Position numbers and translations under genes: made by a program. Positions 1,796 to 20,576 of a DNA stretch of 64,000 bases are shown in pieces (within the stretch, counting starts at the first letter, position 1; every line of letters starts with the position of its first letter). The notes under the pieces were generated by a model. It saw nothing but the letters and a program-made list of their open reading frames with translations, searched no databases and had not been told where the DNA came from. The stretch comes from Syntrophales bacterium (GTDB taxonomy: Bacteria; Desulfobacterota; Syntrophia; Syntrophales; UBA2185): the NCBI GenBank assembly GCA_052144335.1, contig JBKQQP010000016.1, positions 894 through 64,893 of the forward strand. Direction: 5' to 3'.

Positions 1796-2596
1796 TTACT
1801 TGCGCCAATGCTTCCTGTTGTGTGTGTAAAATTGTTCAACGATGCGTTCCATTTCCTGGGGAGCGATAATCTTGCGATCGGTGAAGAAACTGCCGATGAG
1901 AGGCTGCAGCATTCTCTGTCTCGCAAGCAGGATGGTTCGCTGATAGCTGCTGATGTACCCGCAGCGAAGAGCGCATTCACAAAATTTCTCACCTCTGCGC
2001 CGCATAGATATAATCGCCAGGATGTCGTCCCGATCCAGCCAGTCCCATCGTAAAGCAATGTTGCCAACCATCGGCCGTTTGCTTTTTTGCCATACGATAG
2101 CCTCGATCAGGCTTTTCATCGAAATGATGCCGCTGTAATACAGAAACCGCCCAAGGAGAAGCTTTTTTCTCGGAAGCCCTCCCTGCCAGAGATGTTCACT
2201 CATTCCCTGATACCTGCTTCGATGTGCGCCGCTTCCCGTCCTTATATGCTCATGCGATTCATATGTGTTTTGTTTTCTTCTTACTGACTCATGTTCGTAG
2301 GATCGGTGGGCGGCATAGCCGCTATGCGGGTATCTCCAGGGGTATTCGAGAAATGTGTTTAGTTGATTGTAGGCAAGGTTTATTTCTCGGAAACGCTCTG
2401 CCAGGATTAAGGGCGATTCGGCAAGCGCTGTGGCACGGTCAGGGTGCGCCTCCAAAGCCCTCTTCCTGTATGCCCTCTTCAGACTGGAAGCCTTGAGGCA
2501 GTTCAGGAAATGTCTGGAAATATTTGCATCGGTGCCGAACAAGACAGTACAGGCCTTGTGAAGGTCTGATGATGTGGACGCCATTTTGTCCTGCAT
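1796..2596 (-). CDS. J-domain (DnaJ-like) protein with C-terminal MshEN-like helical repeats
   Basis: LKRAYRKRALEAHPD...FREINLAYNQL J-domain motif; start set at ATG 2596 behind GGGGAG (ORF track extends to 2629). Confidence 0.8.
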   Translation of the reverse strand: MQDKMASTSSDLHKACTVLFGTDANISRHFLNCLKASSLKRAYRKRALEAHPDRATALAESPLILAERFREINLAYNQLNTFLEYPWRYPHSGYAAHRSYEHESVRRKQNTYESHEHIRTGSGAHRSRYQGMSEHLWQGGLPRKKLLLGRFLYYSGIISMKSLIEAIVWQKSKRPMVGNIALRWDWLDRDDILAIISMRRRGEKFCECALRCGYISSYQRTILLARQRMLQPLIGSFFTDRKIIAPQEMERIVEQFYTHNRKHWRK

Positions 2597-3089
2597 TAGT
2601 TCTCCCCGTTCGCCTGCTTCCGGATTCAATTGAGGATATTCCGATTAACCTGATTTATATTTATCATGGGCAACGCGAACTTCGCAAGAAAGAAAAAGGC
2701 GAGGAGGGTAAGTGGAGTGGCCTGCTAAATGACATCCTTCCCCTGATGAGCTGTAGCGATTGTAATGTCAACGAAAAGTTTGAGTGTCCTGTCTTTTTTT
2801 GTTTGATGCCGTGCCGGAACTGATGGAGAGACGGCTCTTGACTTATATCTTATCCGTTACTCGAGATCGGCAACGGGACTTCATGTGAATATATTTGGTA
2901 TGGTAAAAGAGGTAGAGTAGGATAATATGCTTGCAACTTTGTTCGAAGTTGAAGCCGAAAGAGTTCTGGAGGTTCAGACGAATATATTGATGAATATTAC
3001 TTTGTATTTCTAAGAACGCAATACGGGGGGAAAGCCGGTATTGCAAAATACACATCTGTCATATTAGTCATCAATCCAATATGTTATAA

Positions 3090-3956
3090 CTAGTCTCCGA
3101 TCCAGCTTGTGATGTATTCGCAAAGGGTGTCCGGCTTTTCGATCTCTGGCTCCTTAATGTTCCACTTGCCTTTCAAGCCAAGTTCGCCCGCAGTGAGTTC
3201 AAAGTGGCACATGGCGATGCCCATATCCAACCGCTGCAAATCAGCTATATTTAAAAGCCTGAAGGTAAAGCTCTTGCCGTACCCCTTGGTACGCTGCATA
3301 TAGAAGTGCCACGAATTACCGTCTTTGAAAATTCTCCAGGGTTGCTTGTTTGAAGCGGAAGGCGCTATCCGCACCATTTCCAGCGGCGCTGCATAAGGAC
3401 CCGCTTCATTAGGTGAGAGAGGAATGCCAAACTTCTCCCGGAAGAAAAGATTATCCCATGGTTTCCTGTTGTGTCCTCCCACAATCTGGCGGATCGTAAC
3501 CCCCTCTTGCTCCTTCTTCAAAATATATCCGACAGAAGCTACGGCAGGCACAAGTTCGTTAGCAGTCGCAGAAATCTTTTTTGCAAAGCTGCTCCTGGTG
3601 AAACTGCCTCCCAGCCAGCAAGTGCCGAGCCCCATGTCCGTCGCAAAGAGAATTACGCGCTCCATCATGCAGCCAAAGTCTTCCAGGTTCTTTGAAGAAG
3701 GTCCCGCGGCGCCCACGATGAATCCCGATGCGCCCTTGATAAAGCCGTATGTGCCCAGTCCCTTCAGGGCCTTTCCATCCTGGTGTGTCGCTGCTATGAG
3801 TTTAAAGCGCACTGCCGCGCCGAATGGCCCTCTGCCGATTGCGGACAGGAAATCGGACAGGCGCTCCCCGTCTTCCTCCGCGATGGGCTTGTCAATATAT
3901 GTCCGGCAGGAAAAGCGTTTCCGAATGATCTCTGTTACGGGTTTACTGTAAAGCAT
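3090..3956 (-). CDS. nitroreductase family protein (two-domain, TM1586-like)
   Basis: IRKRFSCRTY, GLGTCWLGG, RIAPSASNKQPWR, DMGIAMCHF motifs. Confidence 0.9.
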   Translation of the reverse strand: MLYSKPVTEIIRKRFSCRTYIDKPIAEEDGERLSDFLSAIGRGPFGAAVRFKLIAATHQDGKALKGLGTYGFIKGASGFIVGAAGPSSKNLEDFGCMMERVILFATDMGLGTCWLGGSFTRSSFAKKISATANELVPAVASVGYILKKEQEGVTIRQIVGGHNRKPWDNLFFREKFGIPLSPNEAGPYAAPLEMVRIAPSASNKQPWRIFKDGNSWHFYMQRTKGYGKSFTFRLLNIADLQRLDMGIAMCHFELTAGELGLKGKWNIKEPEIEKPDTLCEYITSWIGD

Positions 3957-3980
3957 AATTAATTTCCATTCAACAGTACA

Positions 3981-5111
3981 CTACATGCGGGACGCGGGCT
4001 CGCGCGCCGGCACAGTTACGAACATGCCGCCGACGCATAAGGCCGCAGCGAAAAGCATAACGCCGCGGTACCCCCAACCATGGGCAATGAGACCGCCGAG
4101 CAGCGGACCCACGGCATTACACAAATTAAGGGTGGACTGGAATATGCCCCCGGCAGTGCCCTTTTCTTTTCCGGCGCGCAATACGATCAACAGGGCGCCG
4201 ACATAGAGGCATGACCAAGCCACTCCCAGGATCACCTGCACTATAACCAGGGCAAACCGGCTTGTGAAAAAAGCATATGCTAAAAACACGAAAACTGAAA
4301 GTACCTGACCCCAGAAGAAAGTCTTGAATTCGGAAAACCTCTCGAGCTGTCGCATTACTAAAAATTGCATGGCATAATTAATTCCCCAGAGAAGACCGAC
4401 CCAAAAATGATCGAGGCCTATGGAGACCAGATACAACGGGAAAATTACCCAGACGGCGCTCGCCCCCAGATGACGGAGGAATACAGCAAAGTAAACCTTA
4501 TAGTCGCGACGCATGACAAGCCACAGATTGGGAGGTTTGGAGAATTTATACGTAGGCATCTTTTGAAAGGCCAGGGAGATGAAAAAAGCCAGTAGGCAAA
4601 ACAGAAAACTGAGCCAGAAAAGAAGTTCAATGTCGCCAACCATTGCTGCCGCGGCAGCGCCGAAAATCCATCCCAGGGACCCGTAGGAGCTGTATTTCCC
4701 CATATTGGCGCCGCATTCGAAGGCGTATGTGAGCGTTGCTGCAACGGCAATGCCAAGTGCAAAGCCTACTGCCGCCCGAACGACAATCAATGCCGTGACA
4801 CTGTGCGCGAGGAGCTGGGCGACGAAAGCCACACTGCTTGTCAGAAGCCCCCACCGCACAAACAGAAGCCTTCCCAAGTGGTCGGACTTCCAGCCCGAAA
4901 TGAGAGAAGAAAACAAGAACGCGACCCCATAGGCTGCACCCACAATGCCGACTTCAAAGTCGGACGCCCCCAATTCCACGCCGAGAAGGGGAACAAAGAT
5001 AAATGAGCTCATCGTGGCGAAACTGAGAAAAAAATTAACGAGGCTTATGAGCCAACGGTAGGACTCGCCTCCCGGCTGATCTACCTTCTCTATAATATCT
5101 TGTTCAAGCAT
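3981..5111 (-). CDS. major facilitator superfamily transporter
   Basis: About 12 hydrophobic segments; motif-A-like GWKSDHLGR; GPLLGGLIA in the C-terminal half. Confidence 0.9.
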   Translation of the reverse strand: MLEQDIIEKVDQPGGESYRWLISLVNFFLSFATMSSFIFVPLLGVELGASDFEVGIVGAAYGVAFLFSSLISGWKSDHLGRLLFVRWGLLTSSVAFVAQLLAHSVTALIVVRAAVGFALGIAVAATLTYAFECGANMGKYSSYGSLGWIFGAAAAAMVGDIELLFWLSFLFCLLAFFISLAFQKMPTYKFSKPPNLWLVMRRDYKVYFAVFLRHLGASAVWVIFPLYLVSIGLDHFWVGLLWGINYAMQFLVMRQLERFSEFKTFFWGQVLSVFVFLAYAFFTSRFALVIVQVILGVAWSCLYVGALLIVLRAGKEKGTAGGIFQSTLNLCNAVGPLLGGLIAHGWGYRGVMLFAAALCVGGMFVTVPAREPASRM

Positions 5112-5164
5112 GATGATTCGTTATCGCATAGACACGGCTATCATATCAACTTCTGCAAAAACAG

Positions 5165-5189
5165 AAAAACCCCGGAAGGGCCTCCAGGG
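5165..5189 (-). terminator. Rho-independent terminator of the kor-hdr operon
   Basis: On the minus strand CCCUGGAG-GCCC-UUCCGGGG followed by UUUUU, about 90 nt after the hdrA-mvhD stop. Confidence 0.7.
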
Positions 5190-5278
5190 CTCATTTTCTT
5201 AATTTGCCGGGAATATATTATTTAATGCATAGCTCTCGCATCCTTTTTGTCCTAGTTGCGATCCCGTTTTGAAATTAA

Positions 5279-7735
5279 TTAACGATCGTTTGCAGCGGCC
5301 GATGCCTTGCTTTTCGAGCGGGTCTTTTGCTCCTTCACGATGCGCATCGTTTCGGCGATCTCCTTGGGAGTGACACTCTTCCTGATCTTTTCCATCTTCT
5401 CCATGACCGCTTGAAAGCGCAGTCCTTCCGCCGCGCTTATCCACTCCAGGCCCAGCCTTTCGGTGCGGAGTCCCATCTTTTCCATCTTCTTCCAAATGCG
5501 CTTGATACGCCGCTCCGTCCACTGATTGGCGTTCATGTAGTGGCAGTCGCCGATGTGACATCCCGACACCAGCACTGCGGGCGCTCCTTTGGCAAAGGCG
5601 CGCCAGATGAACTTCTCGTGCACTCTACCGGAGCACATGGTCCGGATCAGGCGGGTGTTGGGTGGGTAGTGAAGCCTCGACACACCGGCAAAATCGGCGC
5701 CTGCATAGGAGCACCAGTTGCATGCAAAGACGGGTATCCTCTCCGCGGCATTCCCTTCGAGTACGGCATCGATCTGAGCCTCGATCTGCGCGTCTGTAAA
5801 ATGGTTCATCGTAATGGCCATGGCGGGACATTCGGCCGCGCATGTGCCGCAGCCCGAACAGGCCGCTTCGGTAACTTCCGCTGCCGTCTTCGCCTTTGCG
5901 TCCACGCTGATGGCATTGTACGGGCACACCTTCGCACACAGGCCGCACGAGTTGCATAGATCGGGATCAACTGCCGCTGTGATCGCCGCCACGGTGAGCG
6001 AACCGGGATTCATGAGGCGCATGGCCCGGGCAGTCGCTGCGGAGGCCTGGGTGACGGAGTCTTTTATGTCCTTGGGACCTTCGGCGCAGCCGGCAAAGAA
6101 TATCCCCCGTGTCGCTGAATCCACCGGCTGCAACTTCGGGTGGGCCTCCAGATAGAAGCCGTCCGATGTTGTCTGGAGGGCCAGCATCTCCTGAATAGCC
6201 TTCATGTCTGCCGGAGGTTCGAGGCCTACGGCGAGTACAACCATTTCCGTGTGGTGTCTCTCCAACTCATTTGTCGCCGTGTTTTCCACTGTCAGCACGA
6301 GATCCCGCGTTCGAGGGTCCTGCTCAATGTCACCGGGGAGGCCACGGATGTAACGGACACCCATACCCTTACTGCGTCGGAAGAGATCCTCAAACCCCTT
6401 GCCGAAGGCCCGGATGTCAATATAGAACACCTTCACCTCCATGTCCGGATAGTGTTCTTTGAGCATGATCGTGCTCTTCACAGTGTTCATGCAGCAGATA
6501 TTCGAGCAGTAGGTCCGGCCCCGGCGCTGGGATCGGGAGCCCACGCATTGGACAAAAGCGACGGACTTGGGAACCTTGCTGTCCGTAAGGCGGATGACCT
6601 TGCCGCCCGTGGGCCCGCCGGCATTGATGAGCCGCTCGAGCTCCATGCTTGTCAGGACATTCTCATAACGTGTGTAGCCATACTCGTCAAGAATAGTCGG
6701 GTCATAGGCCTCCAGGCCGGTGGCTACGATGATTGTACCGACGTCGAATTCCAACTCCTCGTCGTTCATGTCAAAGTCGATGCAGCGCTTCTTGCATTTC
6801 TCGATGCACTTTCCGCAGATGATGGGATTGTGGCCCAGGCAGCGGGTGATATCCACGGCGTATGCCCCCGGCACTGCCTGCGGAAAAGGCGAGTAGATGG
6901 CCCGTCGGGTGCTCAGTCCCATGTTGAACTCATCGGGAATGATGACCGGGCAGACGTCAACGCAGTCACCGCATGCCGTGCACTCCTTCTCCTTCACGTA
7001 CCTCGCCCTCTTCAGGATGCGCACATGAAAGTTGCCCACGAATCCCCTGATCTCTTTTACCTCACTCATCGTTAAAAGTGTAATGTTGGGATGCCGACCG
7101 GCATCCGTCATCTTGGGCCCGAGTATTCAGATGGAACAGTCCATGGTGGGAAATGTCTTGTCGAGCCGTGCCATGATGCCGCCGATGCTCGGCTGCTTCT
7201 CCACGAGTATCACCTTGTAGCCAGAGTCCGCAAGATCAAGCGCGGCCTGTATCCCCGCCACGCCGCCGCCTATAACCAAGGTGGAGGGTGCCACCGGGAC
7301 ATCCATTTCCGTCTGTGCGGCAAGCAGGCGGACCCTTGATACAGCGGAGCGCACCAAGTCCCTCGCTTTAATAGTAGCATTCTTGGCATCATGGCTGTGC
7401 ACCCATGAACATTGCTCCCGGATGTTCGCCATCTCCATAAGGTAAGGGTTCAGCCCGGCTTCACTGACACACTGTCTGAACGTAGCCTCATGAAGCCGCG
7501 GTGAGCACGAGGCCACCACTACACGGTTGAGTCCGAATTCCTTTATGTCACTCTTAATCTGGTTCTGACCCGGTTCTGAGCACGTGTATCCCTGGTGCCG
7601 GCATATCACGACGTCCGCGAGCTTGCCCGCATATGCAGCTACTGCATCGCAATCGACAACGCCTGCGATATTCGATCCACACTGGCAGACATAGACGCCT
7701 ATTCTGACTGTGTTATCCTGTTTTGATTCTTCCAT
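5279..7735 (-). CDS. hdrA: selenocysteine-containing heterodisulfide reductase subunit A fused to a C-terminal MvhD domain (818 aa with UGA read-through)
   Basis: ORFs 7127..7735 and 5279..7111 are in frame, joined by [20 protein letters not shown] (HdrA DCxxC motif). GGGVAG FAD motif, QCVGSR...CSNICC, inserted and C-terminal ferredoxin motifs, MvhD motifs [25 protein letters not shown]. Confidence 0.92.
7089..7106 (-). promoter_or_regulatory. bacterial SECIS-like hairpin
   Basis: mRNA GGAUGCC-GGUC-GGCAUCC; 27 nt separate the in-frame UGA from the loop; the GGUC loop resembles the E. coli fdhF SECIS loop. Confidence 0.85.
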
Positions 7736-7764
7736 TAATCATCCTCTTGATTCAAACCTCTGTA

Positions 7765-8919
7765 CTAAGCGATCTGGTCGGCCAGAACGGAGACCAGATC
7801 CCGTATTTCCATTTGTATCTTTTTCCCCTGCATCAATGGATCGCGTATGGTGCAGGTGAGATGGATCATACATTTGGGACACGCCGTAACGAGCATGTCC
7901 GCGCCCGTTACACGCGCCTCCTCAAGCCTCTGCACCTGAATCTGCTTTGAGGAGGCATCACAATTGATGAAGCCGCAGTTGCCGCAGCACAACGCCCCTT
8001 TGCCCGAGTGTTCCATTTCCCGGAGCTCCATTTCCGGTATGAGGCCGAGCAACTCCCTCGGTCCAGAATAGCGGTTCAGCATGCGTCCAAGCCTGCACGG
8101 ATCCTGAAAAGTGACTTTGCGCTTAAGCGGCCGGAAGGCCGTACTGCCGGGCTGCATTTCCCGTTGGAGGAGGTCGATCAGCAAAGTTACTCTGACGTCA
8201 AATCCCGGGATGATGCGCGGCATGTGTTCACTCAAGACCTGAAAACATTCAGGGCACGAGACGATGAGCTCCTTCACCCCGGCGTCCTTGAAGGATGCGT
8301 AGTTCAGCCGGCAGAGCGCTTCAAAATTTTCGATATCTCCGGACCAGAGCAGGTCGTGTCCGCAGCACTTTTCATTGGGTAGGAGAACCGGCTTGATGTC
8401 CAGGAAGTTGAGCAGCCGTATGCTGTCTCTGGCTATAGACAGCGTATCTACATCGATGCCGGCAAAGAAGACATTGAAATAGGGCGCGCACCCGGTAAAA
8501 AATGCGACTTCTCCTGACGAAGCGACTTTAATGCCTGGATCGAGCCAGTCGAGGCGGTTCTGCTTGAGGCGCGGAGCGGTCATCATCCTCATCCAGGAAT
8601 GGATGGCGCCGTCGTGGGCGCGGTAGCCCTTCAAGCCTTTAGTTTCAGCCAGCAGTGTGCGCATTTCCAGGATGAAACGATTGAAGTCCACGCCCGACGG
8701 GCAGCGTTCACGGCATACGCCGCAAGTCAGGCATTCCCATACCGAATTTTCGATATAGGCATCATCCTCGCGCTCGGAGATCACTTTGTGCACCAATAAT
8801 CTGGGGGAGTATTCCTTTCCTGATAGCTTTCGCGGGCACGAAGCTGTACACTTGCCGCACTCCAGGCACTGATACAGTGACATATCTATGATCATCTGAT
8901 CGATCTTTGGATCGTTCAA
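7765..8919 (-). CDS. HdrD-like Fe-S oxidoreductase (2x[4Fe-4S] plus two CCG domains)
   Basis: CLECGKCTASCP, CLTCGVCRERCP, FFTGC...CCG...CPEC, QDPC...CCG...CPKC; probable TTG start at 8919 overlapping the mvhD TGA, behind GGAGG. Confidence 0.9.
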   Translation of the reverse strand: MNDPKIDQMIIDMSLYQCLECGKCTASCPRKLSGKEYSPRLLVHKVISEREDDAYIENSVWECLTCGVCRERCPSGVDFNRFILEMRTLLAETKGLKGYRAHDGAIHSWMRMMTAPRLKQNRLDWLDPGIKVASSGEVAFFTGCAPYFNVFFAGIDVDTLSIARDSIRLLNFLDIKPVLLPNEKCCGHDLLWSGDIENFEALCRLNYASFKDAGVKELIVSCPECFQVLSEHMPRIIPGFDVRVTLLIDLLQREMQPGSTAFRPLKRKVTFQDPCRLGRMLNRYSGPRELLGLIPEMELREMEHSGKGALCCGNCGFINCDASSKQIQVQRLEEARVTGADMLVTACPKCMIHLTCTIRDPLMQGKKIQMEIRDLVSVLADQIA

Positions 8920-9347
8920 CTCTTCAACTCCTCCAGTTTGCGGCCGCTCTTCGACATAAGGGGACCCAGAGCCCCTACCTCTTCCGTGAAATTCCACAAA
9001 GTCCGAACCAGCTCTTCTTTTTCATGGGCGCCGAAGGTGCGCTCCACCAGCCGTTTCTGGCGTATGCCGAGAAGGTGAAGTATCCTGCGGACGCGGTGCA
9101 CATTTTCATGGCCCACCTCAGGCCCCGGGCCATAGCGGCAATCCTCGTCCGTGCATTCCAGGAGTATTACGCCGTCTGCGCCAAACTCAAAGGCCCTCAG
9201 GATCAGCGCCTGATTGATGCGTCCGATGCACATCACCCGTATCAGGTGAAAGTTCGCAGGCATGTTCATCCCCGTCATCCCCGCTGCGTTGTAGCAGGCA
9301 AAAGGGCTCCAGTTGCAGCATATGCCCAGGATGCGGACAGGTTCCAT
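8916..9347 (-). CDS. mvhD: MvhD/FlpD-family [2Fe-2S] protein (atypical N-terminal Cys motif)
   Basis: IRVMCIGRI, AFEFGADGVILLEC...DCRYGPG; N-terminal motif is CCNWSPFAC. Confidence 0.85.
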   Translation of the reverse strand: MEPVRILGICCNWSPFACYNAAGMTGMNMPANFHLIRVMCIGRINQALILRAFEFGADGVILLECTDEDCRYGPGPEVGHENVHRVRRILHLLGIRQKRLVERTFGAHEKEELVRTLWNFTEEVGALGPLMSKSGRKLEELKS

Positions 9348-9348
9348 A

Positions 9349-12300
9349 TCACAACTCCCTGACCAGTGCGCCCGCGACGATCTCTTCAAGGAGACGATTG
9401 GTAAAGTAGGGCATGTCCATGGCAGTCACCGGACAGCGACCCACACAGCCGCCGCACCCGACACAATTGTAGCGCAACACTTCCGCCGTATAAAAGCCGC
9501 GCTCATTGGCGACAAGCCTGACGGCGTCAAAAGGACATATCTCCACGCAACGGCCGCAGCCGCGGCATCGCTTCCTGTCCACCTTGGGACTGAGCTCATG
9601 GTCTTTCAAAAAGGCCTCTGCCGCGGTAGTTGCCACGTGTGCAGCCAGGGCAGCACCCGCCTGGAAAGCAGTCACTCTCTTGAGCGTCCTGGGCATTACC
9701 CGGTAGACGCCGATCTGGGGGCTGTGAAAAAATTTAAAGTTGTAGCGATAAAATTTCTTGAGGCCGAACATCCCCACGGGAATTGCCAGAGGGAGGACAT
9801 TCATATCGGCAAGACACACTATGTCCGCATGGAAATTCTTGCGGACGCCATTCTCACGCACCGCCACCGTAAAATCACCCAAGTGTCCCTTGATTCCTTC
9901 GATGAGAGCTTCCTTTACGTGCGTGATAGAAGCCCCGGCGATCATGCTGACAGGTCTTTTGCGGATCTCCGCGGGCACTTTCTGGTCATCCTTGAGACTG
10001 CAACGATGGACCAGACGCACCTTGAATCCCTGCATGTTCAAATTGAGGGCGGTGCTCAGACCCAGTTCCGAACCACCCAGAATCAGTATCCGATTTCCAA
10101 TCTTGGTTGTGCTCTGGCGGAGCGGCCCCATGACCCGGGCGCGAATGAAGGCCTCCCTGAAAAAATTACGCATTCTTTCAACAAGCATCTCTTCTGATGC
10201 GTCCGGAGAGCCAAGGTGATCCCTGATGTTGATTGTCTCAAACCGGCAGCGGTCAAGGCGGTGCCTCTCAAAGAGCAGGATGCGGGCACGGTTTCTCTGA
10301 TCGTTGCAGGAAATGCACTGAAACTCCAGGGGACAGCATACGCAGGAGGCCAGAATGACCCTCCCCAGCTTGTGCTCCCGCACGGCAGCGGCAATCTGGT
10401 CGGCGCCCCCTGGATGGCAGGCAGAAAAAATCAGCTCACTGTGCATCACGCCGGGCATCTTCAGCGCCATATCCCGGATGCGCTCAAGCGCGCCGGGTGT
10501 TGCCAGGGTTCCGTTGCACGTGCAGGTGAATACTCCGAACCGCACTTCTTCTTCAGAAGCGATTGGGACTGGCTGGCAGGGGATACTGTTGGTCCGGAGG
10601 GAGGAGCACTCGGCCATGGCTTGGCCCGCCGAGGCGCTCCCGGCTATTAATACATTCACGAGGTCCGTAGCGCTCCGGAAATCTCCCACGCGGTAGACGC
10701 GTTCTCCATTGGCTAAATCCAAGTGCGCAATCTCTTCATCGCTCGCCACAATTACGGCAGGACTGGAAACAGTCATGAGCTCCCTGTTCTTGAAATGATT
10801 GATGGCCCCTATATCCTTGCAGACGCTTTCGCAGAGGCGGCACTCGCAGCAGGAGCTGCAGTGAAGACAGCGTGCAGCTTCAGCCACTGTCTGCTCCTCG
10901 GTCAGTCCCAGCTCCACTTCTTTAAAATCCCGCCGCCTCTCCGTCGCCTGTCTTCTCGACATTTCCGGCCGGGATTTTCGGGGAGTGTCCTCGGATATTT
11001 CCAGATGTTCCCCGGCGCCGCGAGATTCGTCAGGCAGCACACCCCACGAGGGGCCGGTCCCCGTGAGATATTCGACAGCCTGCGCTGCGGCCCGGCGGCC
11101 CTGGGACATGGAGCCTACCACCGTATCCGGTCCTGTAACCGCATCCCCGGCGGCAAAAACGCCTGCCTGCGACGCCGAGAGACGCGCGTCCACATTGATC
11201 GTCCCCGACCGGCCCGTAATCAGCTCTTTTCCGAGCCCCGTTCCCACCAGAGACGGCTGTTGTCCAATGCCAATAATTACAGTATCCGCCGGCCGGAATA
11301 ACTCTGAACCTTTGACCGGTTCCGGCCTTCGTCGTCCGCTCTCATCAACGGCGCCCTGCTTCATGCTAATCATGTCAAGTCCGGTCACTCTTCCTCTTCG
11401 GGAAATGATCCGGGCCGGCGCCACGAGGTATTCAATCTTTACCCCTTCCTCCTGCGCCCTCCGTATCTCCGATCCGTGCGCCGGCATATCGCCCCTCGTT
11501 CTGCGGTAGCATATGGTGACTGATTTCGCTCCCAGCCGGATGGCAGACCGGGCCGCATCAATGGCCGAATTGCCACCGCCGATGACAACCACATTGCCCC
11601 GGATATTCGGCTTGCCACCGGTGTTGAGCTCTTTCAGCATCTCGAGCGCCCCATACATTCCCTTGGCATCTTCACCGGGAATATTGAGGCGGAGGTCCCG
11701 GTGGGCCCCGGTGCACAGGAGAACAGCATGAAAACCCTGATCAATTAGATCTTTGATGGAGCGGATCGGTGTCCCGGTACGCATCTCTACGCCGGCATCG
11801 GCGATGGCCTGTATCTCTGCGTCGAGGACCTCACGGGGAAGTCTGAAGGCGTTGATTCCCATCCGCAGTATTCCTCCCGCTTCACGATGGGCCTCAAATA
11901 CCGTGACGCTGAAACCCTCCCGATTGAGGAAATATGCCGCCGCAAGGCCGGCGGGACCGCCGCCCACTATGGCCACTCTTTCAGGCCTTGGCAGTTTTTG
12001 GGCGCCGGGCAGCCGCGGTCTGCGCTTGGCCATTTCCCTGTCGGCAAGAAAACGTTTTACGCTGCATATCGCCACCGCCTGGTCCAGCGAACGCCGTCTG
12101 CAGGCTTCCTCGCAGGGGTGGTGACAGACTCGCCCGCATATGCCCGGCAGGGGATTATCCTGCCTTATCATGTCAAGGGCCTCGTCAAACCGCGAGGCAG
12201 CAGTCAGCGCCATATATGCATGGACATTAACACCCAGGGGACAGCTAATTCTACATGGAGAAGGTTTGCGCTTATCCAGATCAAGGGCCCGGGAAGGGCA

Positions 12301-12720
12301 GTAGGCCGGTGTCCTGCGCAGGGGGGGATGGCTCGAATTCTGAAGCGGACAAATCTCCATGCAGCGCCCGCATCCGGTGCAGAGGTCGTAGTTTACATAT
12401 ACGGGGTCTTGTGTAATGACGGCCCGATAGCCGTCGGGACCACGCTTGATGGCCTCGATGCGCGCATGGGTTAAGGCGGTAACCAGCGGATGACGCGTTA
12501 CCTGCAGGTACAGCGGGCGGAACTGGAAATCCAGATCTTCAGGGTAATCGGTAAAGGGAGCGGCTCCCTCGGGATGCTCCAGGAAGTGAATCGCTTTCGT
12601 GACCCAGACCAGGGGCAGGCCGGATTGCGAGAGGTCCTGCGCTACCTTCAAGGCGCCGTAACCGGAGCCTACGAGTAGAACGGCTTTTTTCAGGCTGCTG
12701 GTTGAGGAACTCCTATACAT
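9349..12720 (-). CDS. large HdrL-like flavoprotein: GltD/NfnB-type NAD(P)H module embedded in degenerate HdrA scaffolds, with ferredoxin domains
   Basis: CRISCP...CGRVCHHPCEEAC, VGGGPAG, IGGGNSAIDAAR, YRR, FAAGDAVTGP; HdrA-like FTCTCNG/RVILASC/ETINIRD; terminal CRGCGRCVEICP and CVGCGGCVGRCP. Confidence 0.85.
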   Translation of the reverse strand: MYRSSSTSSLKKAVLLVGSGYGALKVAQDLSQSGLPLVWVTKAIHFLEHPEGAAPFTDYPEDLDFQFRPLYLQVTRHPLVTALTHARIEAIKRGPDGYRAVITQDPVYVNYDLCTGCGRCMEICPLQNSSHPPLRRTPAYCPSRALDLDKRKPSPCRISCPLGVNVHAYMALTAASRFDEALDMIRQDNPLPGICGRVCHHPCEEACRRRSLDQAVAICSVKRFLADREMAKRRPRLPGAQKLPRPERVAIVGGGPAGLAAAYFLNREGFSVTVFEAHREAGGILRMGINAFRLPREVLDAEIQAIADAGVEMRTGTPIRSIKDLIDQGFHAVLLCTGAHRDLRLNIPGEDAKGMYGALEMLKELNTGGKPNIRGNVVVIGGGNSAIDAARSAIRLGAKSVTICYRRTRGDMPAHGSEIRRAQEEGVKIEYLVAPARIISRRGRVTGLDMISMKQGAVDESGRRRPEPVKGSELFRPADTVIIGIGQQPSLVGTGLGKELITGRSGTINVDARLSASQAGVFAAGDAVTGPDTVVGSMSQGRRAAAQAVEYLTGTGPSWGVLPDESRGAGEHLEISEDTPRKSRPEMSRRQATERRRDFKEVELGLTEEQTVAEAARCLHCSSCCECRLCESVCKDIGAINHFKNRELMTVSSPAVIVASDEEIAHLDLANGERVYRVGDFRSATDLVNVLIAGSASAGQAMAECSSLRTNSIPCQPVPIASEEEVRFGVFTCTCNGTLATPGALERIRDMALKMPGVMHSELIFSACHPGGADQIAAAVREHKLGRVILASCVCCPLEFQCISCNDQRNRARILLFERHRLDRCRFETINIRDHLGSPDASEEMLVERMRNFFREAFIRARVMGPLRQSTTKIGNRILILGGSELGLSTALNLNMQGFKVRLVHRCSLKDDQKVPAEIRKRPVSMIAGASITHVKEALIEGIKGHLGDFTVAVRENGVRKNFHADIVCLADMNVLPLAIPVGMFGLKKFYRYNFKFFHSPQIGVYRVMPRTLKRVTAFQAGAALAAHVATTAAEAFLKDHELSPKVDRKRCRGCGRCVEICPFDAVRLVANERGFYTAEVLRYNCVGCGGCVGRCPVTAMDMPYFTNRLLEEIVAGALVREL

Positions 12721-12722
12721 CG

Positions 12723-13304
12723 CTAATCCCTTGGCAACCTGCCCTGTTTTGCCCGGCTCTTGAGGGTAGCCTTGCCGTATTCAGCGCCCCGTTCGAAGGC
12801 CCGCACATTTATTTCCCGCGTGGGCGCCGGTACTGATGTCAGCACGGCTTTGCGCAAAGCCTCTGCGCTCACTAATTCATATATGGCGGCAAGAAATCCG
12901 AGCATGACGATGTTCGCCATCATTCTATTGCCCAAATCTTCGGCGAAGTGGGTCGCTGGTATATTGTATGTGGTTACGTCTGGACGAATTTTTTTTACCT
13001 GCACAAGATCCGCTTCCAGAATCAGGATGCCGCCGTCACGCAGACTGCCTATATTCTTGGCATAACCTTCCTGGCTGAGACAGATCAGGACATGCGGTTC
13101 CTTTATATAGGGGAAAAGGACTTCCTCGTCGCTGATAATAATCTGGGCGGAGCAGGAGCCGCCCCGGGCCTCCGGTCCGTAGGCCTGCGTCATGGTGGCA
13201 AATTTTCCATCGTAAAGGGTGGCTGCCGTTCCGAGGATATCGCCGGCCATGATGACCCCCTGTCCGCCGAAGCCCGTTATGAGAATGTATCTTTCCTTAT
13301 TCAT
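12723..13304 (-). CDS. korC: 2-oxoacid:ferredoxin oxidoreductase gamma subunit
   Basis: GFGGQGV, YGPEARGG, NIVMLG motifs. Confidence 0.92.
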   Translation of the reverse strand: MNKERYILITGFGGQGVIMAGDILGTAATLYDGKFATMTQAYGPEARGGSCSAQIIISDEEVLFPYIKEPHVLICLSQEGYAKNIGSLRDGGILILEADLVQVKKIRPDVTTYNIPATHFAEDLGNRMMANIVMLGFLAAIYELVSAEALRKAVLTSVPAPTREINVRAFERGAEYGKATLKSRAKQGRLPRD

Positions 13305-13314
13305 GTGTTATAGC

Positions 13315-14211
13315 TCATTGCCCTGCCTGATTTTCGGGCACGATCGCGCCTTCAAAATCCGGCCAGTCCCCGATCAGATTCTTGCAGCTCAACTGATAGT
13401 TATCCATAAACGTCGACCGTTCCGTGTCAACAAATTTCCCCACGACTATATTGTTGCGGAAGTCTATGGGAGCCTCTTTCGGATCGATGTCGTTGCGAAT
13501 AAGGCAACGCTCATGATAGAACTTCAGAGTCTCCAGGGCAGTGCCTATCTTGTTACGGCGCCCGAAGGAGGTGGGACAGGGAGTCAGGACCTCGACGAAT
13601 CCGAAACCGCGCTTCTGCATTGCCTCAGTAATGGAGTTTGTGAGTCTCCGTATATGCAAAGATGTCCAGCGTGCGACGTAAACCGCCCCACATGCAGAGG
13701 CCAGATAACAGAAATTGAACGGTTCCTCCGGACAGCCCGTGACGCTTGTGGTAGTCTTAGCCCCGAAAGGAGTGCTCGGAGCGAGTTGCCCGCCGGTCAT
13801 CCCATAGTTCAAGTTGTTCACGCAGATGACCGTGATGTCAATGTTCCGCCGGGCCGCATGGATGAAATGATTGCCCCCTATAGCAAGCAAGTCACCGTCA
13901 CCGGAGACGACGAGCACCTTTAGCTCCGGATTCGCGAGCTTCAAGCCGGTGGCGAATGGCAGGGCGCGGCCGTGTGTTGTGTGAAAGGAATCCAGCTGGA
14001 TATATCCGGCCATCCGCGCGGTGCAGCCGATACCGGAGACTATGGCAGTCTTGTCCAGGTCGTAGCCTGATTTCTGAATGGCGGCAATCACGGACGCGAA
14101 AACAGTGCCGATGCCGCACCCGGCACACCATATATGGGGAAGCCGCTCACTCCGGACCAATCCTTCCATGGGATGTTCGGGCACAGTCTTTTCTGCTTTT
14201 TTCGTCTTCAT
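13315..14211 (-). CDS. korB: 2-oxoacid:ferredoxin oxidoreductase beta (TPP-binding) subunit
   Basis: WCAGCG, SGIGC, HTTHGR, GDGD...NN TPP motif, YGMTGGQ, PCPT. Confidence 0.95.
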   Translation of the reverse strand: MKTKKAEKTVPEHPMEGLVRSERLPHIWCAGCGIGTVFASVIAAIQKSGYDLDKTAIVSGIGCTARMAGYIQLDSFHTTHGRALPFATGLKLANPELKVLVVSGDGDLLAIGGNHFIHAARRNIDITVICVNNLNYGMTGGQLAPSTPFGAKTTTSVTGCPEEPFNFCYLASACGAVYVARWTSLHIRRLTNSITEAMQKRGFGFVEVLTPCPTSFGRRNKIGTALETLKFYHERCLIRNDIDPKEAPIDFRNNIVVGKFVDTERSTFMDNYQLSCKNLIGDWPDFEGAIVPENQAGQ

Positions 14212-15368
14212 TTCTTTCCCTTTATAGAGTCTTCAATGGCGCTCAAGATGGTTGCAGGATGGATTATGGAACCGCCCATGTGGGACACCAGATGAACGGG
14301 ACACGCGCCTCCGGCGCACCGCTGCAACTCAAGCACCATCTGGCCCGCATTAATTTCCGGCATAATTAGGGCGCGCACCCGGCCGGCGACGTCTCTTATA
14401 AGTGTTTCCGGAAACGGCCATACCGTCTCCAGTTTGATAAGTCCCGTGCGTATCCCTCTGCTTCGTGCATCTCGTACGGCTTGTCTTGCGGACCGCGCAC
14501 TGATCCCGTAGGCAACTACAACGACGTCAGCGTCATCGAGACAAACGTTTTCCGTCCGGATGATACTGTCCCTGTTGTTTACGATTTTCGCGATCAGGCG
14601 ATTGACCATCTGCGCCTGAGTCTTCTCGTCCATTCCCGGATAGCCACGCTCATCATGCGTGAGACCTGTGATATGAATCCTGTAGCCGTCACCGCAGTTG
14701 GCCATGGGGGCGACCCCGTCCGCATCCGGATGATAGGGTAGATAATCGCTTGGAGATGCCTTGGGTTTCCGCCTGCCGACAAGCTCGATTTCTTCTTTCC
14801 GGGGAATGACGACACGCTCGTTCATGTGACCGACTACCTCGTCCGCCATGATCATGACGGGTATACGGTACTGCTCGCTGAGGTTGAACGCACGGACAGT
14901 TAGGTTAAACATCTCCTGGGGACTGGATGGGGCAAGCGCGATGACCTCGTAATGGCCATGCGACCCCCAGCGGGCCTGCATCATATCTCCCTGGCCGACA
15001 AGTGTCGGGAGCCCCGTAGAAGGCCCAGCCCTCTGCACGTTACAGATCACACAGGGTGTCTCCGTACAGATTCCGAGACCGATATTCTCCATCATCAGGG
15101 AGAAGCCCGGACCGGACGTGCTGGTCATGGCCTTCACTCCTCCCCAGCTTGCACCCAGAATAGCCGACATGGATGCGATCTCATCTTCCATTTGAATATA
15201 TGTGCCGCCCAACTCCGGCAGCCTGCGTGACATACGTTCGCCAATCTCCGTTGCGGGGGTGATCGGATACCCTGCGAAGAATCGGCAGCCCGCAGCCAGA
15301 GCGCCCTCACAGCAGGCATAGTCGCCGTTCATGAAGTAGGTGCCCGTCAATACGGCCTTGTCAGCCAT
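14208..15368 (-). CDS. korA: 2-oxoacid:ferredoxin oxidoreductase alpha subunit (KorA-like)
   Basis: GYPITPATE, QMEDE, TSGPGFSLM, RAGPSTGLPT; start at ATG 15368 behind GAGGTG. Confidence 0.95.
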   Translation of the reverse strand: MADKAVLTGTYFMNGDYACCEGALAAGCRFFAGYPITPATEIGERMSRRLPELGGTYIQMEDEIASMSAILGASWGGVKAMTSTSGPGFSLMMENIGLGICTETPCVICNVQRAGPSTGLPTLVGQGDMMQARWGSHGHYEVIALAPSSPQEMFNLTVRAFNLSEQYRIPVMIMADEVVGHMNERVVIPRKEEIELVGRRKPKASPSDYLPYHPDADGVAPMANCGDGYRIHITGLTHDERGYPGMDEKTQAQMVNRLIAKIVNNRDSIIRTENVCLDDADVVVVAYGISARSARQAVRDARSRGIRTGLIKLETVWPFPETLIRDVAGRVRALIMPEINAGQMVLELQRCAGGACPVHLVSHMGGSIIHPATILSAIEDSIKGKK

Positions 15369-15427
15369 GCACCTCACCTCGTATAATAAATATTTCTACG
15401 TATAATGACATGCAGCAAGTTCTTTCT

Positions 15428-15730
15428 CTATTTGTTCTTCCTTCGAGACCTAGTGGTCTTGCCTTGCGCTGCTTCAGTTGCCTCTATTGAATATATTGCA
15501 AAGTCCGGACACAGGGCCTCGCAGAAATGGCAGTTGACGCATTTTGACTCGTCTACTACTGCCGGCGTATGATAGCCTTTTGCATTAAATGTCTGAGACA
15601 TGACAAGCACATCACGCGGACAGTATGCGACACAGAATTCGCACCCTTTGCATCGATCCTCAACAATGATGACCTTACCTCTGCTCGCCCTGATGCTCTC
15701 CAGATCGAGGGGTTTTCTCCAGTATTTCAT
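15428..15730 (-). CDS. korD: 2-oxoacid:ferredoxin oxidoreductase delta subunit (2x[4Fe-4S] ferredoxin)
   Basis: CKGCEFCVAYCP and CVNCHFCEALCPDFAI. Confidence 0.9.
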   Translation of the reverse strand: MKYWRKPLDLESIRASRGKVIIVEDRCKGCEFCVAYCPRDVLVMSQTFNAKGYHTPAVVDESKCVNCHFCEALCPDFAIYSIEATEAAQGKTTRSRRKNK

Positions 15731-15786
15731 GCGGCAACGCCTTTCTTCGGTTTCATGCCTTCACGGATTTGACAAACAAAGGAATT

Positions 15787-15815
15787 TGTATATGAGAAAT
15801 GCATGCATATGTCAA
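15787..15815 (-). promoter_or_regulatory. putative sigma70 promoter of the kor-hdr operon with a palindromic operator in the spacer
   Basis: Minus strand TTGACA-N17-TATACA; perfect palindrome ATGCATGCAT (15799-15808) inside the spacer. Confidence 0.5.
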
Positions 15816-16067
15816 TAGCCCATGTGCGCTTCAACTCTATGCTGCATATCCAGAAGATCCCGATACGCAAACGGAAGGCTTGTTAAGTCACTCCGCGAGC
15901 GAAAAAGATACAGGCATAACAACCTATGCCCGCGCTGAGCAGGAGATGTATTTTTCGTCATTTTCTGATATAATTACCGATAATGCCTACGATGAAAATC
16001 TTGAGCATAGCAGATTACTTTAATCAATTCTCTCAATGAGTTAACGCGCGTCAAGGAAAGGAGGGCA

Positions 16068-17501
16068 ATGATGGATACATATGACATTTGCATTGGAGGC
16101 ACATTTCACAAAACAGACAAGATTCTGAAAGTCGCCAATCCGTTTAACAATGAGGTCTTTGCTAATACATATTTGGGCCATGAAGCCGATCTGGAAGAAG
16201 CCATCTTAAAGGCTCAGTCGGCGGAAAATGTGATGAAGGGACTGAGCTCTTTCGAGCGATTTGATATTCTTAGGTATATTGCCGATACCCTTATCCAGAG
16301 GAAAGACCGTTTATCAAGGGTACTTGCCCAGGAGTCGGGAAAACCTCTCATATATGCAGGCGCCGAAATTGACCGCTCCAGTCAAACTTTCCTCATCGCG
16401 GCGGAAGAATCTAAGAGGCTTCCCCGAGAATATTTGAGCCTTGACTGGACTGCTGGCGGTAAAGACAAGGAAGGGCTCGTAAAGTATTTTCCCGTGGGCC
16501 TCGTGGCAGGCATCTCTCCTTTCAACTTCCCGATGAATCTGGCGGCCCACAAGATCGCACCGGCTATAGCAACGGGTTGTCCGATCATAGTGAAACCGGC
16601 ATCGGCAACGCCGCTTTCCACACTGGAACTCGCAAAAATCATCGACGAGACTTCCTTGCCGAAGGGAGCGCTGTCCATTGTCCCGATGGATCGAACGACC
16701 GGAATGAAGCTTGTGACAGATGAGAGGTTTAAGCTTCTCACATTCACTGGTTCGCCGGAGGTGGGATGGAGAATGAAGAAAGAAGCGGGCAAGAAAAAAG
16801 TAGTCCTCGAACTTGGCGGGAATGCTGGCGTCATTGTATGCGGAAGCGCCGATATCGACTTTGCCGTGAAAAGATGCATTTTTGGCGGTTTTGCCTACTC
16901 GGGGCAGATCTGCATCCATGCCCAGAGGATCTTTGTGGAGAGAAGGATTTTTGACGAGTTTCTGGAGAAATTCGCAGTGAGTGCACAGAACTTAAGGTTC
17001 GGTGATCCTCTCAAACCAGAAACACAGATCTCTGTCATGATTGATGAGCCGAATGCGAAACGAGTCGCAGACTGGGTGAGAGAGGCAACAAACGGTGGTG
17101 CAAAGACTGTCTGCGGCGGGAACAGGGAAGGTGCATTTTGTGAGCCAACGGTGCTCACAAACACGAAGAGATCGATGAAGGTCAATTGTCTCGAGGTTTT
17201 CGGGCCTGTGGTTACCATAGAACCCTATACAACCATAGAAGAGGCAGTCCGTATGGTAAATGATACGAACTTCGGATTACAGGCGGGAATCTTTACTCAT
17301 AACATGAACGAAATAAACTATGCGTTTATAAACCTGGAAGTCGGAGGCATCATTGTCAATGACGTTCCCACATTCCGCGTGGATCACATGCCGTATGGAG
17401 GTATAAAAGATTCAGGTTTGGGAAGGGAAGGCCTCAAATATGCCATCCTCGATATGATGGAGCCGAAGATACTGGTTACTGATACGCGTCAACACAAATG
17501 A
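16068..17501 (+). CDS. NAD(P)-dependent aldehyde dehydrogenase
   Basis: PFNFP, KPA, FTGS, LELGGN, catalytic GQICI, EVFGP, PYGGIKDSGLGREG. Confidence 0.95.
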   Translation: MMDTYDICIGGTFHKTDKILKVANPFNNEVFANTYLGHEADLEEAILKAQSAENVMKGLSSFERFDILRYIADTLIQRKDRLSRVLAQESGKPLIYAGAEIDRSSQTFLIAAEESKRLPREYLSLDWTAGGKDKEGLVKYFPVGLVAGISPFNFPMNLAAHKIAPAIATGCPIIVKPASATPLSTLELAKIIDETSLPKGALSIVPMDRTTGMKLVTDERFKLLTFTGSPEVGWRMKKEAGKKKVVLELGGNAGVIVCGSADIDFAVKRCIFGGFAYSGQICIHAQRIFVERRIFDEFLEKFAVSAQNLRFGDPLKPETQISVMIDEPNAKRVADWVREATNGGAKTVCGGNREGAFCEPTVLTNTKRSMKVNCLEVFGPVVTIEPYTTIEEAVRMVNDTNFGLQAGIFTHNMNEINYAFINLEVGGIIVNDVPTFRVDHMPYGGIKDSGLGREGLKYAILDMMEPKILVTDTRQHK

Positions 17502-17503
17502 AA

Positions 17504-17633
17504 CCCCCTCGCATTTGAGACTGAATCGTCGCTAGCTGTTGTCGTGAACGGGCAAAAGGGGTGTGTTAGTCTCCTATAGTTTCTGCTGTTTCACTCATTC
17601 GCAGCACGATTGTAACGCAGTCTCGCGAGGGGG
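17504..17633. repeat. long imperfect inverted repeat (about 130-nt rod-like hairpin) between convergent genes
   Basis: CCCCCTCGC/GCGAGGGGG, GAGACTG/CAGTCTC, AATCGT/ACGATT, GCTG/CAGC, GTGAA/TTCAC nested pairings. Confidence 0.7.
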
Positions 17634-17660
17634 AATACAAAAAATATTTCTGTTTCTCTC

Positions 17661-18002
17661 TTACCCTATGGCCTTGCCGCCGCGTTCGCCCGTACGGATG
17701 CGGATAACCTCGTAGAGGTCCATTACAAATATCTTCCCGTCTCCTATCTCACCCGTCCGCGCCCCCTTGATGATCGCCTGTATCGTAGGCTCCACAAAAT
17801 CCTCGTTGCACGCTATCTCTAGCTTTATCTTCTTCAACAGGCTCCCTACTTCCTTCGCTCCCCGGTAAACCTCGGTTAGACCCTTCTGTCTGCCGCGTCC
17901 AAGTACGTTAGATACGGTCACTAGGTTTACCTCCACATCCTCGAGGGTCTTCATCACTTCGTCCAGTTTGTGGGGCTGTATTATTGCGACTATATATTTC
18001 AT
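17661..18002 (-). CDS. glnK: P-II nitrogen regulatory protein
   Basis: [30 protein letters not shown]; directly downstream of amt. Confidence 0.95.
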
Positions 18003-18016
18003 GTTCGTAAACCTCC

Positions 18017-19252
18017 TTATTCTACAACGGTGTAGGCGGCTTCACTCTGCTGGGTAAGATCAAGGCCGATGATTTCATCCTTCTTTTCTACCCTGATGCC
18101 TACTAATGCATCCACAAATTTGAAGAGTATCCAGGTCATTACAGCCGCAAATACAGGTGCCACAACAATGAGCAGCAGCTGAACCAGAAACTGATGAACA
18201 TCCCCGAAGAACAGGCCATTCCCACCGGCTTCGTTCACGACCTTCTCGGCAAACAGACCAGTTGCGATCGTCCCCCACATCCCGCCGACGCCGTGGACGC
18301 CGAAAACATCGAGGGCGTCATCATATTTGAATAGCACCTTCACCTTGGCAATGGCAATGTAGCAGAAGACACTTACGAGAATACCGATGAATATGGCGTT
18401 CATAGGACTCACAAATCCGCAGGCCGGCGTAATTGCGACAAGGCCTGCAACGGCGCCTGTCGCCGCCCCCAGGACAGTCGGAGCGCCGTGCTGCTGCCAT
18501 TCAATAAGCGCCCAGGTCAATCCCGCCGCAGCCGTTGCCGTGTTGGTCGTGATAAAGGCATTTGCCGCCAGTTCGTTTGCCGCCAGGGCGCTCCCGGCGT
18601 TGAATCCAAACCAGCCGAACCACAGGAGGGCTGCCCCCAAAACGGTAAATGGAAGGTTATGCGGCCGGAAGGGCTGCTCCTGATAGCCGATCCTTTTACC
18701 GATAAGCAGCGCCATCACCAGCGCCGATACACCGGAACTGGTATGGACGACAATGCCGCCCGCGAAATCGAGGGCGCCAAGGTTCTTCAGCCAGCCGCCC
18801 GTTCCCCAGACCCAGTGGCCTAAGGGATCGTAGACAAAGGTCGCCCAGAGAATCGTAAAAAGCAGGAAGGCGGAAAACTTGATCCGCTCCGCAAAGGCGC
18901 CTACAATCAATGCAGGCGTGATGACGGCGAACATGCACTGAAAAATCATGAAAACGCTGTGGGGAATCGTCGCGGCATAATCAGGATTCGGCTGCCCCCC
19001 TACGCCTCTCAATCCCACCCAGTCGAAGCCGCCGATGATACCATGACCCGTATCTGGACCGAACGTCAAAGAGTATCCATATAAGATCCACTGCAAGCTG
19101 ATGACGCACAATATGATGAAGCACTGCATCAACAGGGAAAGAACATTTTTCCGCCGCACCAGGCCGCCGTAAAAGAAGGCCAGTGCGGGCACCGTCATAA
19201 GCAACACCAACGCCGATGATGCCAATACCCATGCTGTATCGCCTGAATTCAT
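18017..19252 (-). CDS. amtB: ammonium transporter
   Basis: [56 protein letters not shown]. Confidence 0.97.
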
Positions 19253-19297
19253 AATAAGTACCTCCCGATTCTTGAAATCCTTTTCAGTGCCTACAAT

Positions 19298-19313
19298 AGC
19301 AATTAGGGTGCCA
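19298..19313 (-). promoter_or_regulatory. sigma54 (-24/-12) promoter of amtB-glnK
   Basis: Minus strand TGGCAC-CCTAA-TTGCT, a full match to the sigma54 consensus; IHF-like AATCAACTACTTT immediately upstream (19320-19332). Confidence 0.88.
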
Positions 19314-20554: not shown

Positions 20555-20576
20555 ATACGCTTTGTTAGGAGTTCGC

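Follow-up and report, generated by a model that had tools for sequence, protein, structure and literature searches.

Heterodisulfide reductase subunit A (HdrA) has counted among the listed selenoprotein families of bacteria since 2006, with 16 members in a tabulation that includes four HdrA proteins of Syntrophus aciditrophicus (PMC1794560). Among the deltaproteobacteria, selenocysteine (Sec)-containing forms further include seven HdrA proteins of Syntrophobacter fumaroxidans and the products of hdrA1, hdrA2, hdrL1 and hdrL3 of Desulfobacterium autotrophicum (PMC1794560; PMC2702500), and Table 1 of PMC13188914 lists the 'heterodisulfide reductase alpha subunit, NF040770, CxxU' as a selenoprotein family. 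In archaea, the HdrA of the Methanococcales carries Sec at the corresponding position, as in Sec197 of M. maripaludis (PMC13518236). Here we analyze a 64,000-nucleotide (nt) stretch of DNA from a Syntrophales bacterium (contig JBKQQP010000016.1; hereafter the window), in which two apparent open reading frames (ORFs) are predicted to be one gene of this family, hdrA2, with an in-frame UGA decoded as Sec. We put the probability that it encodes a genuine Sec-HdrA2 at roughly 0.93.

An initial inspection of the window, made from its letters alone (the sequence-only reading), had joined an ORF of 202 amino acids (aa; 7735..7127, minus strand) with one of 610 aa (7111..5279, minus strand) to give an 818-aa product. 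Our translation agrees: the two ORFs lie in the same frame and are joined by a single TGA (7129..7127, minus strand) in the motif DCSIU. The complete gene (5279..7735, minus strand), when translated from 7735 to 5279 with TGA as U, yields 818 residues followed by a stop, with U203 as the only recoded position. The shorter ORF covers HdrA2 from its N-terminus to the UGA, and the longer, which is the part that gene callers report, starts at the first methionine (GPK-M), five codons past the UGA. A Shine-Dalgarno-like AAGAGGA (7748..7742) is found 6 nt upstream of the ATG at 7735. The UGA is followed, after 20 nt, by a perfect 7-base-pair (bp) stem (7089..7106, minus strand; 5' arm GGAUGCC at 7106..7100, loop GGUC at 7099..7096, 3' arm GGCAUCC at 7095..7089), whose 4-nt loop begins 27 nt after the UGA and whose letters also encode (T)DAGRHP. 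The sequence-only reading had described this stem, its loop and its spacing correctly, with the span that it gave, 7089..7129, running from the UGA to the 3' end of the hairpin.

The read-through product matches the NCBIfam HdrA2 model NF040770 over practically its whole length, with 1217.6 bits (cut-off 1100) and residues 11-792 corresponding to model positions 1-775 of 777. Pfam searches recovered an FAD/Pyr_redox_2 domain at residues 152-351, two 4Fe-4S ferredoxin motifs (Fer4 at residues 587-643) and a C-terminal FlpD/MvhD domain at residues 668-784 (2e-44), that is, the HdrA2 architecture of an HdrA core with flavin adenine dinucleotide (FAD)-binding and ferredoxin domains followed by an MvhD/FlpD domain in one polypeptide. 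Residues 11-659 align unbroken to the HdrA of Methanothermococcus thermolithotrophicus (5odc_A, 4.2e-239) and residues 666-790 to the MvhD of the same complex (5odc_D), while a second solved HdrA, 8rvu_a, is matched at 8.6e-227. U203 stands opposite Cys197 of 5odc_A, the second Cys of its DCSIC, with no gap across the TGA, which bears out the earlier placement of this codon at the second Cys of the HdrA DCxxC motif. Since the alignment to the solved HdrA is unbroken, the UGA interrupts one continuous known fold and does not mark the boundary between two genes.

A comparison with the described systems shows that the product shares with the Methanococcales Sec-HdrA (M. maripaludis Sec197; the 5odc, 8rvu and 9sw2 families) the same fold over residues 11-659 and the DCxxC/U motif with the recoded residue at the Cys197/Sec197 column (PMC13518236). 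The two differ in that the selenocysteine insertion sequence (SECIS) lies here in the coding region just past the UGA, whereas theirs is an archaeal element of the 3'-untranslated region, and in that MvhD is fused C-terminally here, whereas theirs is the separate VhuD subunit. With the NF040770 family the product shares both the architecture and the CxxU motif, and we find no architectural difference between them. Like the deltaproteobacterial Sec-HdrAs, the gene is co-located with mvhD and HdrD-type genes (PMC1794560; PMC2702500), and the hdrL-mvhD-hdrD-hdrA order of the window resembles the hdrL-mvhD and hdrA loci of Desulfobacterium autotrophicum (PMC2702500); unlike the deltaproteobacterial Sec-HdrL, the HdrL and the stand-alone MvhD of the window are encoded without a TGA. 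A further parallel is offered by BamE/BamF of the class II benzoyl-CoA reductase of Geobacter metallireducens, where an HdrA-type bifurcating module is likewise combined with an MvhD-type adaptor, Sec is used in the module, and a Cys59-Cys62 pair is equivalent to the CxxC/U (10.64898/2026.04.10.717634). However, the Sec of Bam lies in the MvhD-like BamF (Sec19) and not in the HdrA-like CxxC, and BamE is a fused HdrA dimer. The two precedents invoked by the sequence-only reading, namely Sec at this position in Methanococcales HdrA and HdrA as a deltaproteobacterial selenoprotein family, are thus both to be found in the literature (PMC13518236; PMC1794560). The window hdrA2 is a correctly rescued mis-called gene of an already known selenoprotein family, and the selenoprotein lists for Syntrophus and its relatives in PMC1794560 may name its orthologues.

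The position of the UGA corresponds to a column at which Sec and Cys codons alternate among homologs. Of the 120 best matches in the protein database, 51 are fragments of 587-612 aa with 85-100% identity, and these are the closest ones; 48 of them begin with MTDAGRH, the first methionine past the TGA. As the 51 fragments are truncated gene calls, the same stop is implied in all of them, and the expectation that automated annotation would split such a gene holds for the close relatives. The other 69 matches are full-length (61-76% identity) and show C at the column without exception, a letter that may hide Sec, as the database display stores U as C; by BLASTP nearest-locus assignment, the closest locus has TGC or TGT in its DNA for 64 of these 69. 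At the DNA level, we searched 121 genomes of the same order, 55 of which gave a match at an E-value of 1e-100 or better, and 30 loci were returned. The motif is contained in 29 of these, with TGA at the column in 15 and TGC/TGT in 14. In every one of the 15 loci the TGA is then followed by GGATGYCGGTCGRCATCC, and the 14 TGC/TGT loci have no such hairpin; three further fragments from genomes of the order show both the TGA and the hairpin. Across the GTDB species genomes, 80 loci were returned, and among the 73 with the motif on the expected strand the codon is TGA in 43 and TGC/TGT in 30. The in-frame UGA therefore aligns with Cys in homologs, and the column is occupied by a Cys or a Sec codon, as had been anticipated. 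The HdrA2 of Methanosarcina that has been studied biochemically is the Cys form, and the Methanosarcina locus of our set has TGC at this column. The nearest named relatives are two 'Syntrophaceae bacterium' metagenome-assembled genomes (MAGs), with 92% and 80% identity.

The model of the bacterial SECIS (bSECIS) in PMC13188914 describes an apical loop of 3-9 nt, an upper stem of 4-16 bp, G at loop positions one and two (usually G[G/U]), a UGA-to-loop distance of 16-37 nt, and a minimum free energy of -7.5 kcal/mol or lower. The hairpin of hdrA2 falls within all these limits, with a 4-nt loop opening with GG, a 7-bp stem, a spacing of 27 nt and about -12.6 kcal/mol (the value for the same hairpin sequence within a 32-nt stretch of locus L058); 48 nt of the window around it fold at -13.2 kcal/mol. 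Taken alone, this fit is weak. When we considered the 1482 in-frame TGAs of the genome with at least 60 open codons on each side, a downstream stem of at least 6 bp was present at 227, and a hairpin by itself is accordingly not rare; a stem of at least 7 bp closed by a GGUC loop was present at two, hdrA2 and a MerB-like gene discussed below. The GGUC loop presumably resembles the loop of the E. coli fdhF SECIS. The sole sensitive-mode Rfam match on 7030..7160, AniS (E 2.5, opposite strand), was rejected as a chance match.

Several observations weigh against interpreting hdrA2 as a Sec-encoding gene. No RNA run was listed as containing the hdrA2 stretch. The folding energy of a 76-nt segment is unremarkable (z = -1.34, equaled or bettered by 17 of 200 shuffles), and a search of the whole window with Rfam gave no match at the gathering thresholds. 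The partners and substrates that we consider probable for the HdrA2 module (below) are drawn from gene order alone. Finally, the hairpin overlaps the conserved peptide DAGRHP, so that its conservation is partly driven by the protein.

Because the peptide encoded by the hairpin, D-A/V-G-R-H-P, is itself conserved, tests based on synonymous sites and covariation were needed. In the 42 TGA forms that encode D[AV]GRH, the codons are GAT in 41 and GYC, GGT and CAT in all 42. The flanking four-fold degenerate codons (Gly +3, Pro +4 and Pro +13) of the TGA forms have third-position entropies of 1.3-1.8 bits, and each hairpin codon is variable among the 6 Cys forms that share the peptide. A gap-free alignment of 44 TGA forms has 95.8% of its 308 stem cells paired, as against 21.8-57.5% for slid partners. 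Further, the stem pair 29:36 covaries, being C-G in 27 forms, U-A in 11, U-G in 5 and unpaired in 1, as an Ala/Val exchange in one arm is matched by a synonymous Arg change in the opposite arm; the observed covariation score was reached by none of 500 shuffles. The state of this pair changes at least 13 times on the protein FastTree, an approximate count as some forks are unresolved, and the covariation is therefore not one inherited event. These comparisons argue that the hairpin is under RNA-level selection independent of the peptide. It is this comparative evidence that is decisive and lifts the hairpin signal well beyond chance.

The genome, a draft of 94 contigs that is 100% complete by marker genes, encodes the Sec machinery in full. 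The selA gene for L-seryl-tRNA(Sec) selenium transferase, which the sequence-only reading had noticed at 57844, is found in the window itself (57844..59274, plus strand; TIGR00474, 601 bits against a cut-off of 267.9). The selB, selC and selD genes that it had proposed to look for lie elsewhere in the genome: SelB scores 382.6 bits (cut-off 242.25) over model positions 2-581 of 581, SelD 384.7 bits, and the tRNA-Sec 76.2 bits with Rfam, the last being also called by ARAGORN as tRNA-SeC with the anticodon tca (UCA). All four components exceed their curated cut-offs. TGA is also the commonest stop of ORFs of at least 350 codons (532 of 1304), and hence a general TGA-sense code is not in use.

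With these results, the alternatives to Sec decoding can be weighed. The one that survives best, at a probability of only a few percent, is a split or decayed gene in which the UGA terminates translation, leaving the 202-aa fragment and a 610-aa remainder that goes untranslated or has its own start at the ATG at 7111. The public gene calls treat the relatives in just this way (the 587-612-aa entries that make up 51 of the 120 best matches), and an ATG is available five codons past the TGA. Against this, 43 of 73 loci, from MAGs of at least 10 labeled phyla, have the TGA at precisely the same column, and the five codons between it and the ATG are in frame and conserved as ILGPK. A pseudogene would neither freeze synonymous sites nor show compensatory pairs; a break here would fall inside the FAD-binding thioredoxin-reductase-like domain, whose alignment to solved HdrA is continuous; and the genome retains complete Sec machinery. 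Slightly less probable still is that the UGA is read through as Trp or Cys, by near-cognate or suppressor tRNAs or under a TGA-sense code. Such decoding would likewise give an 818-aa product, and sequence analysis is blind to the residue inserted, but the predominance of TGA among the stops of long ORFs speaks against it, as do a hairpin that fits the SelB-dependent bSECIS model and is under RNA-level selection, the presence of tRNA-Sec (UCA), SelA, SelB and SelD, and a column that is Cys in all the non-TGA homologs, as is usual where Sec and Cys alternate. An assembly or sequencing error for TGC/TGT, conceivable in a draft of this many contigs, is effectively refuted by the same TGA in 14 other genomes of the order, in 43 species genomes and in the contigs of four metagenome runs. 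We hence favor the decoding of the two apparent ORFs as one Sec-containing HdrA2.

The four metagenome runs come from four studies, and one of them belongs to the same study as the possible source sample. Their contigs show no other letter at 7127-7129, and the hairpin differs in a single run only, by 7090 G>A, so that a G-C pair becomes G-U. The summed contig depth rises 4- to 9-fold at 7085..7144 in three of these four runs, on account of extra short contigs that match roughly that TGA-SECIS stretch only. This pile-up fits nucleotide-level conservation among several co-occurring relatives, but it is only a hint.

If hdrA2 is decoded in this manner, the hairpin GGAUGCC-GGUC-GGCAUCC, 20-37 nt past the UGA, would act as a bacterial SECIS: by analogy to the established bacterial mechanism, it would bind SelB-GTP carrying Sec-tRNA(Sec), and Sec would be delivered when the UGA is in the ribosomal A site. 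The 818-aa product would then comprise an N-terminal iron-sulfur domain, a thioredoxin-reductase-like FAD domain, two ferredoxin domains and the fused MvhD, and would carry the motif Cys200-x-x-Sec203. The structures of homologs offer two possible roles for residue 203. In one, it may serve as fourth ligand to the N-terminal [4Fe-4S] cluster in the partner protomer, as Cys197 is a ligand of that cluster in the partner HdrA protomer (PMC9012536). In the other, Cys200 and Sec203 may form a reversible selenylsulfide that passes electrons between the N-terminal cluster and the bifurcating FAD. A 2026 cryo-electron microscopy study of the M. maripaludis complex reports density for a Cys-Sec197 selenylsulfide between cluster A3 and the FAD and calls its role unresolved (PMC13518236), and a preprint on Bam describes the equivalent Cys59-Cys62 disulfide in one conformational state (10.64898/2026.04.10.717634). 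The sequence-only reading had taken the position to be that of a cluster ligand; this agrees with PMC9012536, whereas PMC13518236 describes the selenylsulfide instead.

To place the Sec forms, we constructed an exploratory FastTree of 74 rows, 44 Sec and 30 Cys. A single bacterial clade of 49 rows (support 94) contains all 44 Sec forms, and the archaeal HdrA2 rows, together with a second clade of bacterial and Bathyarchaeia rows, are all Cys. The Sec/Cys label requires at least 4 changes on this tree, and none of 500 shuffles was as low. The rows with Sec carry MAG labels from at least 10 phyla, taken as given and possibly imprecise. Five Cys rows are nested in the Sec clade, namely Desulfobulbus rhabdoformis, a Desulfatiglandales MAG and three Dehalococcoidia, and their placement makes them look like three reversions. 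In at least the first two (L062 and L075, respectively) a weakened stem of 5-6 bp can still fold at the SECIS position, with the GGUC loop lost; these stems look like fossil SECIS elements left after a Sec-to-Cys reversion. Variant elements are also seen among the Sec forms of the clade: a Phycisphaerales MAG (L097) encodes MEAWRH and folds as GGAGGCG-UGG-CGCCAUCC, and two further loci (L112 and L123) have a GGUA loop.

Beyond hdrA2, other signals of Sec usage are found in the genome. The selD gene (contig C68:71435-72361, minus strand) has one in-frame TGA in the context HGAG-U-ACK, which corresponds to a Sec-type SelD; RNAfold gave no clean hairpin downstream of it, and a possible GGUC-containing loop discerned by eye was not relied on. 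A gene of the MerB (alkylmercury lyase-like) family (contig C53:158841-159545, L138:842-1546, plus strand) is interrupted by in-frame TGAs at residues 91 and 156, both within its Pfam MerB match (PF03243, 3.6e-16). Downstream of each is a hairpin whose loop is GGUCU or GGUC, the second having a perfect 7-bp stem, and translation probably stops at a third TGA, which lacks a hairpin. Its matches to the NCBIfam MerB and SaoL models are weak (28.8 and 27.7 bits, below the cut-offs). From these features, the gene is probably a double-Sec selenoprotein. A second Hdr-type cluster (contig C13:100141-106414) combines HdrA-like pieces, an MvhD domain and the best match to formate dehydrogenase alpha (832.8 bits), with no in-frame TGA in any of its members; FdhA, which is usually the commonest bacterial selenoprotein, appears here to be the Cys form. 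None of the four MvhD-domain matches in the genome has a TGA. A codon-usage log-odds scan for further read-through genes was dropped as too unspecific, with 1607 of 7120 passing, and the hairpin-based candidates on contigs C13, C26, C40 and C42 proved to be non-coding-looking or an ABC ATPase that starts after the TGA.

These lines can be joined into a broader scenario of a single ancient origin of Sec-HdrA2, wide horizontal spread, and a costly Sec machinery kept for few clients, HdrA2 foremost among the reasons, to which we would give somewhat less than even odds. It would entail a SECIS that may be almost letter-for-letter constant (GAUGYC-GGUC-GRCAUC) across a large bacterial clade, whose presence in MAGs labeled with at least 10 phyla would imply the horizontal transfer of a ready-made gene, at least three reversions to Cys with decayed stems still in place, and a genome in which SelD, HdrA2 and the MerB-like protein with its two Sec residues may be the very few Sec clients. 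The few-client part is suggested by the absence of TGA in the best formate dehydrogenase match and in all the MvhD copies. Were it true, HdrA2 would be a main reason why the Sec trait persists in this genome.

A Sec-HdrA2 is by itself unsurprising to specialists on selenoproteins or Hdr. How widespread and nearly invariant this SECIS is, and that the Sec form apparently arose once, may be modestly new; our literature search, which left supplements and subscription journals outside its scope, recovered no description of either. The practical consequence concerns annotation: hdrA2 and dozens of its close relatives are stored publicly as truncated fragments of about 600 aa, and the annotation of syntrophic and sulfate-reducing bacteria is consequently in systematic error for a central electron-bifurcation subunit. 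The signature of TGA, 20 nt and GGATGYC GGTC GRCATCC provides a simple diagnostic for repairing such gene calls. In addition, the natural alternation of Sec and Cys in one bacterial clade supplies comparison material for the Cys-x-x-Sec pair beside the bifurcating flavin.

The genes around hdrA2 form a run on the minus strand. Its upstream neighbor (7765..8997) encodes a fused HdrC/HdrB-like, i.e. HdrD-type, iron-sulfur protein with a 4Fe-4S dicluster domain and two CCG domains (CCG 1.2e-26, Fer4_8 7.7e-11), which is preceded by the stand-alone mvhD of the FlpD family (8916..9389; PF02662, 6.1e-33), free of in-frame TGAs, and by the gene for an HdrL-type protein of 1123 aa (9349..12720). Upstream of the latter and on the same strand are tightly spaced genes for the gamma (12723..13304), beta (13315..14211) and alpha (14208..15377) subunits of a 2-oxoacid:ferredoxin oxidoreductase. 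Downstream of hdrA2, the gene for a major facilitator superfamily (MFS) transporter (5111..3981, minus strand) follows in the run. At the longest GTG/TTG starts, the mvhD ORF overlaps the HdrD-type gene by 82 nt and the hdrL gene by 41 nt; translation of mvhD and of the HdrD-like gene probably begins further downstream.

We propose that HdrA2 and the HdrD-like, MvhD and HdrL proteins would constitute a cytoplasmic flavin-based electron-bifurcating or confurcating module, which would link ferredoxin, from the neighboring 2-oxoacid:ferredoxin oxidoreductase, and NAD(P)H to a disulfide-type acceptor. The HdrD-like protein reaches 52.6, 45.5 and 42.9 bits with the HdrC models, against cut-offs of 160, 270 and 350, and does not qualify as an equivalog of HdrB/HdrC. 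As this neighbor falls below the cut-offs for methanogen HdrC, we regard the enzyme as a bifurcation module of the HdrA2 type rather than as a CoB-CoM heterodisulfide reductase. The heterodisulfide of coenzymes M and B (CoM-S-S-CoB) as a substrate, and a coenzyme M/B metabolism, are not expected in a Syntrophaceae-like bacterium. Among the neighboring genes scanned (1796..21215 of the window), we found no hydrogenase, no formylmethanofuran dehydrogenase and no aldehyde oxidoreductase (AOR)-type bamB.

The HdrL-type protein, for which we use the name given in PMC2702500, is a GltD-like NAD(P)-binding flavoprotein fused to HdrA-like N-terminal and ferredoxin parts (NF009410, 504.7 bits, with segments of the HdrA2 model); in the window copy, there is neither a TGA nor the FPTxDCxxC motif. 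In five other genomes of the same order (L053-L057), HdrL-like paralogs of about 1030 aa have a TGA at the same column as hdrA2, in the motif FPTNDCSMU, and are accompanied by a SECIS with a different stem, CUGGCCG-AGGU-CGGCCGG, 22 nt past the UGA.

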